From the IMG/VR virus record IMGVR_UViG_3300025018_000448, positions 1 through 28,737 of that record: 28,737 nucleotides of DNA. One strand, given 5' to 3'. The notes beneath the pieces were generated by a model. That model was given only the letters and a program-made list of their open reading frames with translations, did no database searches and was not told the DNA's origin. This document shows positions 1,815 to 10,807 of this stretch, piece by piece. Source of the stretch: a virus. Taxonomy: Duplodnaviria > Caudoviricetes. The first letter of the stretch is position 1, and the number at the start of each line of letters is the position of its first letter. The translations under genes and the position numbers were made by a program.

Positions 1815-2576
1815 ATGACAAGAGCAGTAATAAAAAGAAGAGTGATAGGAGAAGAAGATTCCTTTAATACAGTCTCAGATGCTGATAGATACGATATCCT
1901 CAGACGCTACAGGCTAGGGGAGACCTTAGTATCTATAGCTAACTTAAAGAACCTTAGTCTAGCTACTATAAAGATCTTTGTCTCTACAGAGATTAGTGGT
2001 CTCTCAACAATACAGGAGATCAACAAACTAACTAATGAGGCTAAAGGTCTTATAACTACTGTAAGAAACCCTACAGCACTAATGAATGATAAGTTCCTAG
2101 AGAACGTAGACGATGGCAAGGAAGTGTATGCCTTCTACTACGCTATGACTGGGAGCAATGAACATGCGCTAGAACAAGCTGGCTTAGATAAGTGGATACC
2201 TACAGGGGTAGGGGCTAAGACTAAGAGATACACTCTCTCAGTTCGTGGTAAGTTCATCAGGGATCTCCCAGGTATCCAAGAGTATATCAATGAGATCAGA
2301 GATAAGAGACTGAGGGATATGGACTTAGGTAAGCCCTATATCCAATCTGAACTAGTAGAGCAGATAGAACAACTGAAGGAGATATCAGGAGATGATCCCA
2401 AGTACAGAAGCAACTTACTAAAAGCTATAGAGCTCCTAGGTCGTACCATGGAAGCCTTCTCTGATACTATAAGAATAGAAGATGCTGATCCTCGCACAGG
2501 TCTTGAGATACTCATGGCTAAAGCTAAGGCTGAAGTATCAGGGGGAGTAACTACGTATGAGCCATCCGAAGAGTAA
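1815..2576 (+). CDS. putative terminase small subunit / DNA-binding protein
   Basis: Overlaps the start of the large terminase; N-terminal HTH-like segment (RYDILRRYRLGETLVSIANLKNLSLATIKIFV); C-terminal 'LKAIELLGR' resembles TerS oligomerisation motifs. Function mostly from synteny. Confidence 0.6.
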   Translation: MTRAVIKRRVIGEEDSFNTVSDADRYDILRRYRLGETLVSIANLKNLSLATIKIFVSTEISGLSTIQEINKLTNEAKGLITTVRNPTALMNDKFLENVDDGKEVYAFYYAMTGSNEHALEQAGLDKWIPTGVGAKTKRYTLSVRGKFIRDLPGIQEYINEIRDKRLRDMDLGKPYIQSELVEQIEQLKEISGDDPKYRSNLLKAIELLGRTMEAFSDTIRIEDADPRTGLEILMAKAKAEVSGGVTTYEPSEE

Positions 2577-3960
2577 TCAGAAGTTACTAGAAGAAGCTCA
2601 GGCATACTACAATGGAAAGCCCATAGAGTTCTTTGAACAAGTACTGAAAGTAAAATTAGATGAGCAACAGAGGAGACTCCTCCTCCGAATAAAGCCTGGA
2701 TGTAGGATAATGGTTAAATCTGGGAAGGGTACTGGGAAATCTTTCCTCCTAGCAGGGCTAACCTTCTACTTTGAGTTCTGCTTCCCAGACTGCTTTATCC
2801 GTACCATCAGCCCATCCTATGATCAGCTACTGGCAGTATACATGAGGGAAGCACACCATCACCACCTCAGGATGATCCCAGAGATTCGAGAGCAGTTCAC
2901 GGTACAGCACGATAAGGTGTACTTAACTAAGCTCCCAACTAATACTATGGAGTGTGTCAGTAGCAAGACATCTAAGCAGGAACGTCTGGGTGGTATGCAC
3001 GCCTTTACTCAGGTGCTCCTCTTTGATGAAGCTTCTGGTGTATCAGATGAAGCCTACTACATGTCTCTGTCATCTATGGGTACAGCATTTGGAGGTGGGT
3101 ATGTTATAGGGGTATCTAACCCTGAGAGAGGGGAGGAGAGCTTCTATTACAACTTATTCGCTAGGGAGGTAGCTGGATGGGACTTACTAACCTTCACTGC
3201 ACAAGATAGTGACCAAGTTAAACCTGAGTTCATACAGCAGATGAAAGATCTCTACGGTGAAGATGGGGATGAATATCGTGTAGCTATCCTAGGGGAGTTT
3301 CCCAGGAGTGATGGTAGTGCCTACATACCCATGTCCCTAGTAGAGAAGGCCATAGCTAATACAGCTGATAGGGCATCTTATATACATGAACCTATAATCA
3401 TAGGAGCTGATATAGCCCGTAGTAAGTCTGGGGATAGTACAGTATTTGCTGTAAGACAAGGGCATAAGGTACTGGATATTATAGCTTTCCAGACAGACGA
3501 CACAATGGTAACAGTAGCAAAGCTTAAGGATATAGCAGCTAAGTATAATGCATCCAAGATATGTATGGATGCTGATGGTGTAGGTGGACCAGTAGCTGAC
3601 AGATGCAGAGAACTAGGCCTCCCAGTCACTGACGTAAGAGGCTCCTTTACATCCTCTGACCCTAGGCAATACGCTAATATAAGGACACAGCTCTGGGGCG
3701 AGATGAGGGAGTGGTTAGACTACGGGGATATCCCAGACCACTATGAGCTAAAGAAAGAATTAGGAACAATGAAGTGGGGATACTCAGGCAAGATGGCTGA
3801 GCAACTAGTGTCTAAGAAGAAGCTTATTGATGCTAGGGGTAGACGAATTAAGAGCCCAGACTACGCTGATGCACTAGCGTACACCTTCTTCTTCTCCACC
3901 ATAAGTTCCTTCAAGAATAAGACTAGGGCTAAACCTATCAAGAAGAGAAAGAGCATATAA
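2557..3960 (+). CDS. terL: terminase large subunit
   Basis: Walker A (VKSGKGTGKS), Walker B (LLFDEASG), coupling motif (VSNP), RNase H-like nuclease acidic motifs (IGADIA, DADGVGG, SPDYADAL). Confidence 0.95.
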   Translation: MSHPKSNQKLLEEAQAYYNGKPIEFFEQVLKVKLDEQQRRLLLRIKPGCRIMVKSGKGTGKSFLLAGLTFYFEFCFPDCFIRTISPSYDQLLAVYMREAHHHHLRMIPEIREQFTVQHDKVYLTKLPTNTMECVSSKTSKQERLGGMHAFTQVLLFDEASGVSDEAYYMSLSSMGTAFGGGYVIGVSNPERGEESFYYNLFAREVAGWDLLTFTAQDSDQVKPEFIQQMKDLYGEDGDEYRVAILGEFPRSDGSAYIPMSLVEKAIANTADRASYIHEPIIIGADIARSKSGDSTVFAVRQGHKVLDIIAFQTDDTMVTVAKLKDIAAKYNASKICMDADGVGGPVADRCRELGLPVTDVRGSFTSSDPRQYANIRTQLWGEMREWLDYGDIPDHYELKKELGTMKWGYSGKMAEQLVSKKKLIDARGRRIKSPDYADALAYTFFFSTISSFKNKTRAKPIKKRKSI

Positions 3961-7387: not shown

Positions 7388-10300
7388 ATGGCTTTACGTC
7401 CAGAAACAGCGCTTTACCACAATGCAGTAGACAACACCTACTTGGATCCGGTTAATTATATCCCGGAGTTGTACTCTAAGAAGGTTTTAAGGAAGAATTA
7501 GAAGTTCCTTTTTAAATCCCTACTGAAGAACGGGGTAAGACCCGAAGGAAGGTAATTCACTCTCATGAGGCGAATATGTTCAATACAAATGATCTAGGCT
7601 ATAAGCTTAGATGTGGAAGTATCAAGAAGCACTCAGAGCAACTTAATAAATATGTTGCTGGCTTTATAGATTCAGATGGGTGTATATCCTTGAAGTATAA
7701 GGAGATGACTACTGGTAGGTATGGGGTGTATGTACAGTTTGCACTCTGCCAATCTGAGAGCAATGATGAGGGGCACGAGCTTCTACTAGCTTTACAAAAG
7801 CATTATAATGTAGGACAAGTATACATAGAGAGAGAGTTCTCTAAATCTGTAGCAGCTAGGTGGGTGGTGTCAGGTAAGGAAGCTGAGAAGTTTCTAAGTG
7901 TAATACACAAGCACCTGCTAGTTAAGTACACACATCTAGGTAATATCTTATGGATAACCAGGGAGTTACGGGGCTATACTATCAGAGATGCTACTGATCT
8001 TAAAGATTACATGAAGTGCTCTAGGGCTTCATCTAGGTGGAAGAGAGAACCTAAGCATATATCAAAAGCCTGGTTAGCTGGTTTCATAGATGGAGATGGG
8101 CACTATAGAGTTCGTATAGGTAGACAACGTAGATACGGGGATGGTTCAGTGGCTACAGTCAACGAGCTTAAACTCTTTCTCGGTACCCAAGAGTCTGATG
8201 TATTTATTTTAAGGCAACTCTGTAAGGACTATAGAGGATCCTTAAGTAAGCGAACTGATGGCTTATGGATGTGGCAGTTAGCCCTGGGAAAGCAGAGTAG
8301 AACTAAGGCTATAGACCTACTAACGTCCCTAAGGAAGTATACTTGTATTACTAAGAAGTACAATGCTATTCTAAGAGCTTTAGCATTCCATGAACAATAC
8401 CACCTGCAGAGACTAAGTGTTGGGGAAGTCGATAAGATTATGCGATAGTCCGATAAGCTTCTATGAGTCTGCTATATTTCAAGATATTTGTAACACTGAC
8501 TTAACCTAATAGGTCACTTGAGGAGAGATCCTCTCGATTAAACTATGTGAATTGCTGGAACCCTGAGATGGGAATCAGCAGCGAAGCTTAGGTGGCGACA
8601 CCTTTGAACGTTCAACGACTAACCCTCGATACTCTTTTCAGAGTGTGTAATAGGGACACGAGCGCATAGCCCCAGAGATGGGTGATGATATAGTCTGATC
8701 TTATGGGAATACAACCATAAGTGCTAGTGTATTAAAAGGCTAGCAATAACGTAATGATGAGGGTGAGATTAAAGGTGCTGGTGCTAAGGTACATATTCGT
8801 AAGACTCCAGAGATCACTGTTAACCCGTACACAATCGGACAGACTCTGACTTATGAGGTACCTGAGAAAGATTCCACTGAGCTTGTAATTGACCAAGCTT
8901 TCTATACTGCCTTCCAGGTTGAAGATGTAGAGAAAGCTCAGGCTGATATCGAGCTTGTTAATATGTTTGCTAAGGATGCTGGAGAGCGAGTAAAGATTGC
9001 TGTCTCCAGAGAGGTACTTGCCTATATGTCCCTGCAGCCAGCTGCAGCTAACCAAGGTAACGTAGCCGGTGCTATCAGTGGTGCTATTAAGCTTGGTGCT
9101 ATTGCCGGTGTTGGTGCCTCTGTTCTTATTGATAGTACTAATGCAGTCAATAAGATCGTAGAACTTAATCAGGCTCTGGATGAACAGAACATCCCAAGTG
9201 AAGGGCGTTGGATTGCACTTCCTGCCTGGTACTGTGCCCTTCTTAAGGTTGGTGACTTGAGAAGATCCGACATTACCGGAGATAGTACTGGTGTGATTCG
9301 TAACGGACTCATTGGTCAAGTTGATCGTACTATGATCTACATGACTAATGGTCTTCATACTGCCACTGACGGTGATGCTGCTACTAGCACCTACGTCCTT
9401 TGTGGTACAAAAGAAGCTTCTAGCTTCGCTGCCCAGATCACTAAGACTGATACGCTGAAGATTCAGAATGCCTTCGGTGAGTCGGATGACTACGAGACTC
9501 TTCTCGCAGCCTAGTGCTCACTTTAAACTACTTTAAATAACGGGGTAAAACCCGAGGCAATGTATATAATTCCTCTTAGGAGCGTAATTAATGATATTCG
9601 ATACTAACACCTTAGGGTACAAGTTAGTTACAGGACAACTAAAGAAACACTCAGAACAACTTAATAAGTATGTAGCCGGTCTTCTGGATACAGATGGCTG
9701 GATAGGTTTTGAGTTCACACAAGGTAAAGCTTACGTTCGTATGGGTCTCCGACAAGCTGCAACAGTTGATGGAGACTTTCAGATGCTAAGAGCTGTACAG
9801 AAGCACTACCAACTAGGTACGATTTCCTACGGTTTCCAAGCAAATGATGTATCCTTCTGTTCCTGGAGACTTAGCACTAAACATGCTAACATGCTCTTCG
9901 GTTTAGTAGGGAAACATATGCGGATTAAACAGTCACACTTTAAGAACATACTAGAGTTTGATACTACGCAGGGAGACTTAAAAGAGTTCTCCAGGCTAAG
10001 TAGAGAAAACACTGGTTGGCTGAAGAGACCTAAGCACTTATCTTACGCGTATGTAGCTGGACTTCTTGATGGTGATGGCTGCTACAGAATCCGTAAGAAG
10101 GAAGGTAAGATTACTACAATGTGTGTTAAGGCAGCTATCAACGAAGAGTTCATACTCTTAAAGCTGCAAGAAGACTTTGGTGGTTCCATCAACGATCATT
10201 CAGAAGGTATGAAGTGCTGGCGTAGAGGCTTAGGTAAAGGGCATAAAGCCTTCTCTATTCCATTCCTTAAGAGCATGAGGAAGTATTCATGCATAGAAGG

Positions 10301-10504
10301 GAAGTACCTAAAGATCAATGAGATGTTAAGATATCTACAAGCCGCAGAGACTAAACAAGTAGAGATCACCCCAGTGGTGATCTAAGTGATAGTCCAACCG
10401 TACTAGCTACGGTTGACTGGCGTTCGCTCTTTGTCTATGGGCGTGCTGTCCCACAGCCTACTGCACTTGCTGCTCTTATCTGCAAGCCTGGTACTGCTGT
10501 GTAA
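7388..10504 (+). CDS. major capsid protein, spliced: join(7388..7494,8458..8501,8757..9482,10416..10504), 321 aa
   Basis: Exons of 107+44+726+89 = 966 nt join in frame: MALRPETALYHNAVDNTYLDPVNYIPELYSKKVLRN|FYESAIFQDICNTDY|EGEIKGAGAKVHIRKTPEIT...KIQNAFGEY|WRSLFVYGRAVPQPTALAALICKPGTAV*. The IPE.YS..FY..NTDYEGEI..G..V.I and FG...R.L.VYG patterns are those I recall from P22-coat-like (HK97-fold) capsids. ORF-track 8963..9514 is part of exon 3. Confidence 0.92.
7495..8457 (+). mobile_element. group I intron 1 (963 nt) in the capsid gene; reduced core, carries a LAGLIDADG gene
   Basis: IGS TAGAAGTTCCTT (7499-7510) is the exact reverse complement of the ligated junction AAGGAA|CTTCTA. P3 7517-7522/8421-8426; P4 CGGG 7531-7534/CCCG 7541-7544; P6 AGG/CCT; J6/7-P7 GCAGAGACTA; P7' TAGTC 8446-8450; terminal G 8457. 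Confidence 0.88.
7576..8448 (+). CDS. intron-encoded two-motif LAGLIDADG homing endonuclease / possible maturase
   Basis: Motifs YVAGFIDSDG and WLAGFIDGDG; lies in L6 of intron 1 with its 3' end overlapping P6'-P7-P3'-P8-P7'. Confidence 0.92.
   Translation: MFNTNDLGYKLRCGSIKKHSEQLNKYVAGFIDSDGCISLKYKEMTTGRYGVYVQFALCQSESNDEGHELLLALQKHYNVGQVYIEREFSKSVAARWVVSGKEAEKFLSVIHKHLLVKYTHLGNILWITRELRGYTIRDATDLKDYMKCSRASSRWKREPKHISKAWLAGFIDGDGHYRVRIGRQRRYGDGSVATVNELKLFLGTQESDVFILRQLCKDYRGSLSKRTDGLWMWQLALGKQSRTKAIDLLTSLRKYTCITKKYNAILRALAFHEQYHLQRLSVGEVDKIMR
8502..8756 (+). ncRNA. group I intron 2 (255 nt), canonical, ORF-less, subgroup IA-like
   Basis: 5' exon ends in U (TGACT) pairing with GGTCA; P2 with GAGA tetraloop; P3 CTATGTG/CGCATAG; P AATTGCTGGAA, Q AATCAGCAG, R GTTCAACGACTA, S GATATAGTCTG; extra helices between P7 and P3'; two P9 hairpins; ends in G 8756; removal restores D-Y-E-G-E-I-K. 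Confidence 0.95.
9483..10415 (+). mobile_element. group I intron 3 (933 nt) in the capsid gene; reduced core, carries a LAGLIDADG gene
   Basis: Exon GTGAGT pairs with GCTCAC (9516-9521; U.G at the splice site); P10 CTAGT/ACTGG; P3 CTACTT/AAGTAG; P4 CGGG/CCCG; P6 GGC/GCC; GCAGAGACTA...TAGTC; P8 AGATCACC/GGTGATCT; P9 AACCGTA/TACGGTT; terminal G 10415. Confidence 0.92.
9591..10385 (+). CDS. intron-encoded two-motif LAGLIDADG homing endonuclease / possible maturase
   Basis: Motifs YVAGLLDTDG and YVAGLLDGDG; clearly paralogous to 7576..8448 (shared LGYKL..G..KKHSEQLNKYVAG and PKH.S.A..AG..DGDG). Confidence 0.92.
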   Translation: MIFDTNTLGYKLVTGQLKKHSEQLNKYVAGLLDTDGWIGFEFTQGKAYVRMGLRQAATVDGDFQMLRAVQKHYQLGTISYGFQANDVSFCSWRLSTKHANMLFGLVGKHMRIKQSHFKNILEFDTTQGDLKEFSRLSRENTGWLKRPKHLSYAYVAGLLDGDGCYRIRKKEGKITTMCVKAAINEEFILLKLQEDFGGSINDHSEGMKCWRRGLGKGHKAFSIPFLKSMRKYSCIEGKYLKINEMLRYLQAAETKQVEITPVVI

Positions 10505-10511
10505 ATAAATT

Positions 10512-10542
10512 CTGGGGGTACTCCTCTGTGGGGTACCCCCAG
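10512..10542. terminator. strong GC-rich hairpin after the capsid stop (terminator or processing/stability stem)
   Basis: CTGGGGGTACTCC-TCTGT-GGGGTACCCCCAG, 13-bp stem; no U-tract on the + strand, A-rich upstream. Confidence 0.55.
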
Positions 10543-10553
10543 TCTCTAGAGAC
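10542..10553. promoter_or_regulatory. GTCTCTAGAGAC palindrome, copy 4
   Basis: Exact; abuts the post-capsid hairpin, upstream of the tRNA cluster. Confidence 0.75.
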
Positions 10554-10643: not shown

Positions 10644-10729
10644 GGATGTCGTGAGCATTGGTAAGCTTCAGCGGGCTGTAACCCCGTAGCCTTCGGGCTG
10701 TCTAGGTTCGAATCCTAGGGCATCCACCA
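10644..10729 (+). tRNA. tRNA-Tyr(GTA)
   Basis: Acceptor GGATGTC/GGCATCC, anticodon arm GCGGG-CTGTAAC-CCCGT, long variable arm AGCC-TTCG-GGCT, T arm CTAGG-TTCGAAT-CCTAG, A73, encoded CCA. Confidence 0.88.
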
Positions 10730-10732
10730 TAA

Positions 10733-10807
10733 GGCACATAAGGATATGTGGAGATCTTCTAGCCTTGTAAGCTAGCTAACAGTGTTCGACTCACTGATGT
10801 GCCTCCA
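10733..10807 (+). tRNA. tRNA with TGT (Thr) anticodon and atypical, Cys-like acceptor stem
   Basis: Acceptor GGCACAT/ATGTGCC, D stem GGAT/ATCT, anticodon arm CTAGC-CTTGTAA-GCTAG, T arm CAGTG-TTCGACT-CACTG, U73, encoded CCA. Confidence 0.82.

Follow-up and report, generated by a model that had tools for sequence, protein, structure and literature searches.

Compact phage group I introns without P2 and P5 in a major capsid gene: a P4 hexaloop as candidate wobble receptor and a probable A-U 5' splice site

Introduction

The U.G pair at the 5' splice site of group I introns, docked by adenines of the joining segment J4/5, is to our knowledge treated as completely conserved. The Tetrahymena adenines A114 and A207 recognize this wobble (PMC9943679; PMC1891724), and C-G at position -1 raises undocking approximately 80-fold (PMC1891724). 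Here we describe the major capsid gene of a phage (Duplodnaviria; Caudoviricetes) known from a 28,737-nucleotide stretch of DNA (IMG/VR record IMGVR_UViG_3300025018_000448, positions 1 to 28,737), hereafter the window. The gene is interrupted by three introns, of which introns 1 and 3 belong to a family of compact, P2-less group I introns and, within it, to a clade that also lacks P5. An earlier note on this DNA had singled out these two introns as a minimal ribozyme type, possibly dependent on the LAGLIDADG proteins that they encode.

The window introns presumably share their IA-type R and S motifs with subgroup IA3. Archaeal IA3.1 introns likewise harbor a LAGLIDADG open reading frame (ORF) in P6 (PMC6125680), and IA3-related introns occur in phages, e.g., in Bastillevirinae clades 7-8 (PMC11878797). 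Bastillevirinae introns range from 173 to 3279 nt, as compared with 118-191 nt for the ORF-less, P5-less members reported here, and phage intron diversity has been stated to exceed the current subgroups (PMC11878797). GISSD members of IA3 measure 205-374 nt and have 81 consensus pairs (PMC6125680); the likening to IA3 goes by description and size. The P5-less cores reported here differ in holding approximately 25 pairs plus P1, with no P5, often no P9 and no P7-P3 insertion.

A likewise compact core is found in the Azoarcus tRNA-Ile intron (IC3), which serves as the usual example of a minimal self-splicing group I ribozyme and has P2, P5 and P9 tetraloop-receptor contacts. Its wobble is read by J4/5 adenines (PMC9943679; PMC1891724) and its length is 197 nt (PMC12373953), against 118 and 121 nt for the smallest members described here, which do without P2, P5 and P9. 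The same P2-less architecture, with an ORF in L6 and a capsid-like host gene, was found in the cultured Pseudomonas phage HHBS10_2 (PQ287653; our locus L012, at about 2420-3308). This intron differs in having a 3-bp P5 with a GA/AA loop, in keeping U.G and P9, and in encoding a nuclease without the N-terminal extension described below; it is unannotated, its ORF is labelled HNH, and the capsid-like gene is annotated on the wrong strand or piecemeal. Some natural group I introns have C-G at their 5' splice site, and very small, degenerate group I-like introns occur in nuclear rDNA; both are precedents for departures from the U.G rule and from limits on size. Unlike the former, the non-canonical introns reported here have A (A-U) or G (G-C) at -1, with no guide G at the site, and unlike the latter, the small members have a catalytic core that is complete and co-varies. 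A mycobacteriophage capsid intron (PMC3706429) is apparently unrelated, its ORF lying on the opposite strand. A full-text literature search, which covers older and subscription papers and supplements thinly, returned no account of this family, of P5-less group I introns, or of A-U or G-C 5' splice sites. Judged from sequence, the P5-less introns are a new, compact variant within the known group I class, departing from the conserved P5 and J4/5 and, in intron 1, also from P9 and most likely from U.G. A 2025 database dropped 16,427 candidates for not starting with U (PMC11835236).

Results and Discussion

Introns 1 and 3 of the capsid gene

Removal of the three introns from the major capsid gene (7388-10504; coordinates of all features are in Table 1) yields a 321-aa protein with 287 residues identical to the intronless homolog P0092 and gap-free junctions. 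Introns 1 and 3 are very probably spliced, in an RNA-catalyzed two-step reaction. As the earlier note had read them, TTTAAA (at 7511 and 9522) joins the 3' strand of P1 straight to P3 in introns 1 and 3, with no P2; the P4 hairpins are CGGG-GTAAGA-CCCG (7531-7544) and CGGG-GTAAAA-CCCG (9541-9554), with no P5; and an A is followed by a 3-bp P6, formed by AGG (7546-7548) and CCT (8403-8405) in intron 1 and by GGC (9556-9558) and GCC (10341-10343) in intron 3. The covariation that it saw in P3 also stands, but its register for P3 of intron 1 is one base off by homology, which gives either CCCUAC paired with GUUGGG, one U.U included, or a bulged helix of 7 bp. Intron 2, which it used as an internal control having P2, P5 and J4/5, proved to be a match to Rfam RF00028 (60.5 bits, E 3e-13) and is not matched by our family model R1. 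What the note had missed is that intron 1 most likely has neither P9 nor the U.G pair.

GCAGAGACTAA occurs at 8406 and 10344, GATAGTCC at 8444 and 10388, and these motifs as well as CGGGGTAA have exactly two occurrences each in the window. P10 has 6 bp in intron 1 and 5 bp in intron 3. P1 of intron 3 has 7 bp with U.G on top, and its loop holds an extra hairpin (9483-9515); similar P1-loop insertions were seen at our loci L029, L141, L148 and L152.

The compact family and its structural support

The family was searched with alignments of nuclease homologs first and DNA patterns later. A first parse retained 86 of 111 elements, 25 being dropped as truncated, divergent or unrelated, and the final parser, run over the window and loci L012-L317, returned 90 distinct introns. 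Of these, 65 have more than 6 nt above P4 (P5-bearing) and 25 have a loop of 5-6 nt (P5-less; 19 with an ORF and six without). Two further P5-less, ORF-bearing introns, L280 and L287, were read by eye, which brings the P5-less members to 27, at about 15 capsid insertion sites and with their nucleases in one clade. P2 was seen in none of the 27, and in 57 of the 63 P5-bearing members with a stem found the guide lies 12-20 nt from the core, leaving no room for P2; loss of P2 marks the whole family and not the P5-less clade alone. The ORF-less, P5-less introns measure 118, 121, 138, 152, 170 and 191 nt and retain all elements of the core, and P9 is absent from eight of the 27 P5-less members, intron 1 among them, with tails of 5-8 nt.

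Host genes encode major head proteins in all ten distant family examples tested. Hosts of the P5-less clade belong to the capsid family of the window in 23 of 25 cases by HMM, the other two having tiny flanking exons of the same gene. Among cultured phages, tblastn found only HHBS10_2 and Pseudoalteromonas phage J2-1, in which an unannotated P5-bearing member (L318, MF370964, at about 1080-2030) directly precedes the annotated coding sequence of the terminase large subunit.

Introns 1 and 3 are unmatched by RF00028 (gathering threshold 50 bits) up to E 5, and nine intact ORF-less family members from eight loci up to E 10; the same Rfam model does detect conventional introns in related loci. 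Model R1, built from eight ORF-less introns, scored a held-out member at 74 bits and also found ORF-less L155, and its only matches in the window are the four halves of introns 1 and 3. A search with the motif given in the earlier note proved unproductive, its nine matches among viral contigs all being at chance level. Chance also accounted for all three matches of a pattern scan of prokaryote genomes and for 19 of the 41 loci of a broad viral pattern scan (R1 matches none of these 19, nor four other chance loci). No real match to the 118-nt intron was obtained by blastn against cultured phages, and a single-protein locus search with the intron 1 ORF gave no matches.

Across the 25 parsed P5-less members, 324 of the 325 variable cells of P3, P4, P6 and P7 are paired, as compared with 216 in shuffles, and two-sided changes are numerous; as the parser required P4, P6, a 5-bp run in P3 and the R and S motifs, this paired fraction is partly built in. 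P3 is paired in 149 of 150 cells and P7 in 150 of 150, and the 262-312 pair co-varies, matching base 263 included. P4 (4 bp), P6 (3 bp) and P6a (at least 3 bp) form in 25/25, and P6a and P8, which the parser did not require, each form with at least 3 bp in 25/25. The P3 closing mismatch is U.C in 23/25 P5-less and U.U in 61/65 P5-bearing members. In a MAFFT alignment of eight full-length ORF-less relatives, compensatory two-sided changes occur at 18 of the 25 pairs and 99% of cells are paired, a level reached by none of 500 shuffles and compared with 34-40% in slid controls, although the tested structure was drawn from the same eight sequences, which favors it over the slid controls. Unconstrained folds of three ORF-less members each contain P3, the hexaloop hairpin of P4 and P6/P6a; two of the folds also have P8, and P1 or P10 was recovered as well. 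The global folding z-scores of these members are modest (-0.33 to -1.90). Since six P5-less introns have no ORF, P5 cannot come from ORF sequence, and an alternative fold with P5 and J4/5 supplied in this way, named earlier as a refuting possibility, is ruled out. The compact P2- and P5-less subclass put forward in the earlier note is thus upheld by 27 members at about 15 sites, one nuclease clade, covariation and six ORF-less members.

Several loci bear on the history of the family. The site of intron 2 (8502-8756 in the window) is held elsewhere by the 118- and 121-nt family introns (L018 1229-1346; L025 near 2304), each separated from the next intron by a 13-nt exon. L033 carries two introns 69 codons apart (near 3144 and 3546), with 95% identical cores and different guide sequences, and the nuclease of the second does not group with other site-293 nucleases; this pair suggests copying of cores or nucleases within one gene. 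Introns of L023 (near 2443) and L026 (near 2440) share a site and have sister nucleases, one core having P5 and the other not, a contrast that would reflect either core-nuclease exchange or regain of P5. Outside the parsed set, L183, L184, L185 and L190 have related nucleases, a family-like 5' core and the R motif, with no obvious S motif after P8, and their ORF seems to run on.

The P4 loop as a candidate wobble receptor

Loops of P5-less members have G and U first and A last in 25/25, and are mostly GUAAAA. Tetrahymena numbering, which we take to map here through the conserved C109-G212 pair, places A at the 114 and 207 equivalents in all 65 P5-bearing members. In the P5-less loops G113 and the A207 equivalent are kept in 25/25, and the A114 equivalent is U. 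Beneath this largely constant loop P4 varies (CGGA/UCCG, CGAA/UUCG, CAGA/UCUG, CGAG/CUCG). The 19 ORF-bearing P5-less members were retrieved by protein search and not by loop sequence, and therefore their loop conservation is not a search artefact. In the P5-bearing relatives P5 is of graded length: 41/65 have at least two P5 pairs directly after a 2x2 loop, most others have an asymmetric loop, and a few have one or two pairs, with loops of 10-12 nt that leave space for one or two (L062, L141, L147, L130, L170).

It is likely that the hexaloop is a truncated wobble receptor in which A207 was kept and A114 lost. The earlier note had proposed that either an A-rich hexaloop or the encoded protein replaces the missing domain. 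The hexaloop is the better supported of the two, because G113 and the A207 equivalent are kept in 25/25 and P5 shortening is graded in relatives.

LAGLIDADG proteins: homing and maturase function

Both window ORFs are located in L6 of their introns, match PF00961 and have both LAGLIDADG motifs intact. All 19 P5-less ORFs group with four P5-bearing ones in one clade (23 rows, SH-aLRT 98 in a quick tree), in which the acidic residue of the first motif is present in 22/23 ORFs, those where the regular expression matched. The structure model of the intron 3 ORF (pLDDT 94.2) has the standard monomeric meganuclease fold (Z 18-20 to solved meganucleases) and a folded N-terminal helix at residues 8-13. 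Of the rows displayed, 22 of 23 in the clade and none of 53 (out of 58) outside it have the extension to which this helix belongs. The extension is conserved at the protein level, with synonymous codon variation at HSEQLNK and invariant L8, Y10 and H20-Q23. It is the best hint of an RNA-binding role, and could equally serve DNA binding or stability; as a strict marker of P5 loss it is ruled out, since four P5-bearing members have it. With approximately 15 insertion sites occupied in one gene family, these proteins are very probably homing endonucleases in the first place.

Maturases with a LAGLIDADG fold exist, and that of bI3 binds P5c (PMC2813881). An account in which the introns work as maturase-dependent ribonucleoproteins would have the clade protein bind the P4-P6 stack or P1 and replace the P2, P5 and P9 contacts in cis and in trans, the N-terminal extension perhaps being the binder, and protein help would license non-U.G sites. 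We consider this rather unlikely, although it survives better than the other alternatives. In its favor, the 19 P5-less ORFs, together with both introns having a clear G-C at -1 (see below), fall in one nuclease clade with an extension absent from P5-bearing outgroups, and the tree places P5-bearing L027, L032 and L170 outside the P5-less rows, as would be the case had the change in the protein come first. However, in L023 a core with P5 is combined with a nuclease that nests within the P5-less ones, the nuclease motifs are intact, and the P5c target of the bI3 maturase is absent from these RNAs. Moreover, I-AniI and the bI3 maturase share the double-motif monomeric fold (1p8k, E 1.4e-6; 2ab5, E 5.4e-6) at 14-16% identity, no closer than pure nucleases, and I-AniI is merely tied with other meganucleases against the window protein model (Z 18.3, rmsd 3.2, 227 aligned residues), its alignment starting from residue 20 and leaving the N-terminal extension unaligned.

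Co-occurrence was assessed in 15 phages, obtained through an ORF-independent pattern and grouped by the analyst from 22 real loci. Five have ORF-less P5-less introns, and all five also carry an ORF-bearing member; indeed, every ORF-less P5-less member lies in a gene with an ORF-bearing one. As maturase evidence this pattern was rejected as not discriminating, since the P5-bearing ORF-less members (L104, L128, L155, L174) co-occur with ORF-bearing ones likewise; co-homing explains both, some intervening exons being 13-52 nt long. In 18/18 P5-less ORF introns tested, the stop codon of the ORF falls within the catalytic core, so that translation and splicing compete on one transcript, a further point against the maturase account. 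Weak predicted hairpins (-3 to -11 kcal/mol) lie over the purine-rich stretch 5' of the nuclease start codon in the 19 P5-less ORF introns (7549-7580 and 9560-9595 in the window), and together with the stop in the core they make a coupling of translation and splicing possible. Overall, dependence on the own protein appears doubtful: a cis maturase is not needed, because ORF-less members exist. The suggestion that the introns may depend on their LAGLIDADG proteins thus does not hold as a need in cis; in trans these proteins may have a role.

The 5' splice site of intron 1 and other non-U.G sites

Among 268 in-frame junctions scored for intron 1, the best places A at -1 and G at the intron end; it yields RNFYES and restores N36 (N in 89/101 capsid homologs). 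The terminal (omega) G helped choose this junction, and the same junction scores top without that filter. The best junction with U at -1 and omega G scores 24 bits lower and adds residues. L033 (with ORF) and L034 (138 nt, ORF-less) have introns at the same codon that also score best with A at -1, the corresponding costs being 21 and 20 bits. In all three introns the guide and the ligated exons form one uninterrupted pairing (P1 6-7 bp, P10 5-6 bp; in intron 1, 12 contiguous Watson-Crick pairs, six in each helix), with compensatory P1 changes, G as the first base and no P9. The other 24 P5-less introns have U.G (20 by script with homology, two by stem search, two by eye). The guide-to-anchor distance is 16-20 nt in 22/24 P5-less introns with a U.G-topped stem found, a count that includes an off-site stem in intron 1 and in which the two outliers are wrong stems, and 19 nt in the A(-1) and G(-1) introns. 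It is quite likely that the 5' splice site of intron 1 is an A-U pair. Nearby U.G options were ruled out by their cost of 20-24 bits, and a distant 5-bp U.G stem about 34 nt upstream, beyond the 20-nt range scored, was rejected since its use would remove conserved residues and L034 has no equivalent stem. One base downstream of the intron 1 site, L017 has an intron with a normal U.G, a position that suggests a one-base slide of the splice site.

Loop position 5 is A in all 24 U.G members and changed in all three A(-1) members, whose loops are GUAAGA, GUAAUA and GUAAA (G, U and one base shorter). As the A(-1) introns form one lineage with cores 76-90% identical, one loss rather than three is indicated, followed by apparent relaxation.

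P5-bearing L027 (core near 517) and L170 (near 2452) interrupt the capsid gene at residue 230, where the best junction follows G in a G-C pair and no U.G-topped stem was found; L169 has only a matching 3' end, near 869-960. L027 and L170 would represent a second, independent lineage with a non-canonical 5' splice site. Two more loci have unusual ends. P5-bearing L153 (near 2434) has a possible non-U.G 5' site (G-C or A.C) with a weak P10. In the ORF-less P5-less intron at L018 1010-1179, P1 and a 5-bp P10 point to A rather than omega G as the last base; the end of this intron is the same on four contigs, and the 95% identical core of L016 ends in G.

An alternative reading of intron 1 keeps the canonical register, with the cut after the G facing the guide G, ligation after GC and Lys at residue 36. 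It is favored by its score, which in each of the three same-site introns trails that of the best junction by only 3.8 bits, by K at residue 36 in 6/101 homologs, and by the guide G, kept 3/3 at 20 nt and within the normal range. Nevertheless, it requires both G.G at -1 and a C where omega G is expected, although the G-binding P7 is fully conserved. The AA/C junction, in contrast, restores N, the majority residue, ends the intron in omega G and forms an unbroken guide helix of 12-13 bp in 3/3. We therefore regard the canonical register as improbable.

A model for P5-less splicing

Altogether, the explanation that we favor, with moderate confidence as a whole, is that introns 1 and 3 function as mobile group I introns and belong to a compact phage family that is P2-less and IA3-like. 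Within this family, one lineage would have lost P5 by shortening. The RNA core (P3-P7 pseudoknot, G-binding site, P4-P6 stack and P8) would catalyze guanosine-initiated two-step splicing, and GUAAAA would be a collapsed J4/5-J5/4, in which a sheared pair of the G113.A207 type on P4 presents the A207 equivalent to the guide G of P1. With the wobble read more weakly, the splice site may be set mainly by P1/P10 pairing and the short, near-fixed P1-P3 tether. This would have let the intron 1 lineage slip by one base onto an A-U pair of the Watson-Crick type, with drift at loop position 5 to follow, a causal order that is speculative. LAGLIDADG nucleases would spread the introns and carry ORF-less neighbors along, with no protein help required in cis. 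In its strongest form, the proposal would be that this lineage includes the smallest group I ribozymes in nature that are still catalytically complete (118-138 nt, lacking P2, P5 and P9), that they self-splice free of protein with a hexaloop as the receptor, and that one branch, intron 1 among it, uses an A-U 5' splice site with no wobble. This form is tentative, and we hold it to be possible rather than probable.

Several observations weigh against this model. The losses of A114, P2, P5 and often P9 (8/27) remove most long-range stabilizing contacts, and protein-free activity may be poor. All 19 P5-less ORFs lie in the clade with the conserved, folded N-terminal extension, and none of the 15 phages has ORF-less P5-less introns only. 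The runner-up junction of intron 1 (G at -1, terminal C) is a mere 3.8 bits worse, the correlation between loop and splice site comes from one lineage of three same-site introns, and non-U.G sites in P5-bearing L027 and L170 indicate that P5 loss is not needed for them.

An account in which the introns need not their own protein but either ribosome passage or some general RNA chaperone of the host or phage, with the loop as a stable cap, draws on the recruitment of host cofactors by many group I introns (PMC2813881) and on the modest z-scores of the three ORF-less members. A neutral cap would not, however, stay GUAAAA at about 15 sites while P4 changes, in members of which 19 were found by protein, and we deem this account very improbable. 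That the introns, known from a metagenomic DNA fragment alone, are degenerate non-splicing remnants or assembly artefacts is barely credible, as they interrupt a major capsid gene with intact, in-frame exons and co-varying helices, and odd ends recur on separate contigs (at least two for the L034 intron, four for the L018 intron ends).

Genomic setting

The + strand genes of the fragment encode a terminase, portal, probable scaffold, the capsid protein, two tRNAs and tail proteins. The tRNA-Tyr and tRNA-Thr genes lie downstream of the capsid gene (10644-10807). Between them and the capsid gene, a G+C-rich inverted repeat was seen at about 10513-10543 and is not called a terminator; promoter and terminator scans gave chance-level results only.

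Table 1. Exons, introns and intron elements of the major capsid gene in the window.
Feature	Position	Strand	Description
Major capsid exon 1	7388..7494	+	Ends AAGGAA (P1 5' strand, 7489-7494); last base A, not U; from junction enumeration
Intron 1	7495..8457	+	963 nt; without P2, P5, P9; first base G, last base omega G; same-site relatives L033, L034
Intron 1 internal guide	7499..7510	+	UAGAAG (P10 with exon 2 CUUCUA) and UUCCUU (P1 with exon 1 AAGGAA)
Intron 1 5' core	7517..7553	+	P3 5' strand 7517-7523, J3/4, P4 7531-7534/7541-7544 capped by GUAAGA, A, P6 7546-7548, P6a 7551-7553
Intron 1 LAGLIDADG ORF in L6	7576..8448	+	290 aa; double-motif (AGFIDSDG, AGFIDGDG); conserved N-terminal extension; stop codon within catalytic core
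Intron 1 3' core, first part	8399..8426	+	P6a/P6 3' strands 8399-8405, J6/7 GCA, P7 5' 8409-8415, P3 3' 8419-8426
Intron 1 3' core, second part	8427..8457	+	P8 8427-8439, J8/7, P7 3' 8446-8451, 6-nt tail to omega G 8457, no P9
Exon 2	8458..8501	+	44 nt
Intron 2	8502..8756	+	Conventional ORF-less group I intron with P2, P5, J4/5, P9; outside the compact family
Exon 3	8757..9482	+	Ends GGUGAGU (U at -1); phrog_267 major head protein, E 9e-36
Intron 3	9483..10415	+	933 nt; canonical U.G P1 (guide G 9516), no P2, no P5, P9 present
Intron 3 5' core	9528..9564	+	P3 5' 9528-9533, J3/4, P4 9541-9544/9551-9554 capped by GUAAAA, P6 9556-9558, P6a 9561-9564
Intron 3 LAGLIDADG ORF	9591..10385	+	264 aa; double-motif; 37% identical to intron 1 ORF; monomeric meganuclease fold
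Intron 3 3' core	10336..10415	+	P6a/P6 3', J6/7, P7 5' 10347-10353, P3 3' 10357-10362, P8 10363-10383, P7 3' 10390-10395, P9 10396-10414, omega G 10415
Exon 4 to stop codon	10416..10504	+	Junction gives GEYWR as in homologs; Y293 in 95/101

Conclusions

As these introns are missed by Rfam, capsid genes that contain them are annotated piecemeal. The family represents a natural deletion series, in P5 (at least three, two, one or no pairs), in the presence or absence of P9, in the 5' splice site (U.G, A-U, G-C) and in the presence or absence of an ORF. This series makes the size of the minimal group I catalytic core directly testable, and likewise whether loss of RNA elements precedes or follows the turning of a homing nuclease into a maturase. 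If the strongest form of the proposal is true, splice-site choice would rest solely on P1/P10 pairing and tether length. A 118-nt splicer, or one free of the U requirement, would be useful for RNA circularization and trans-splicing.

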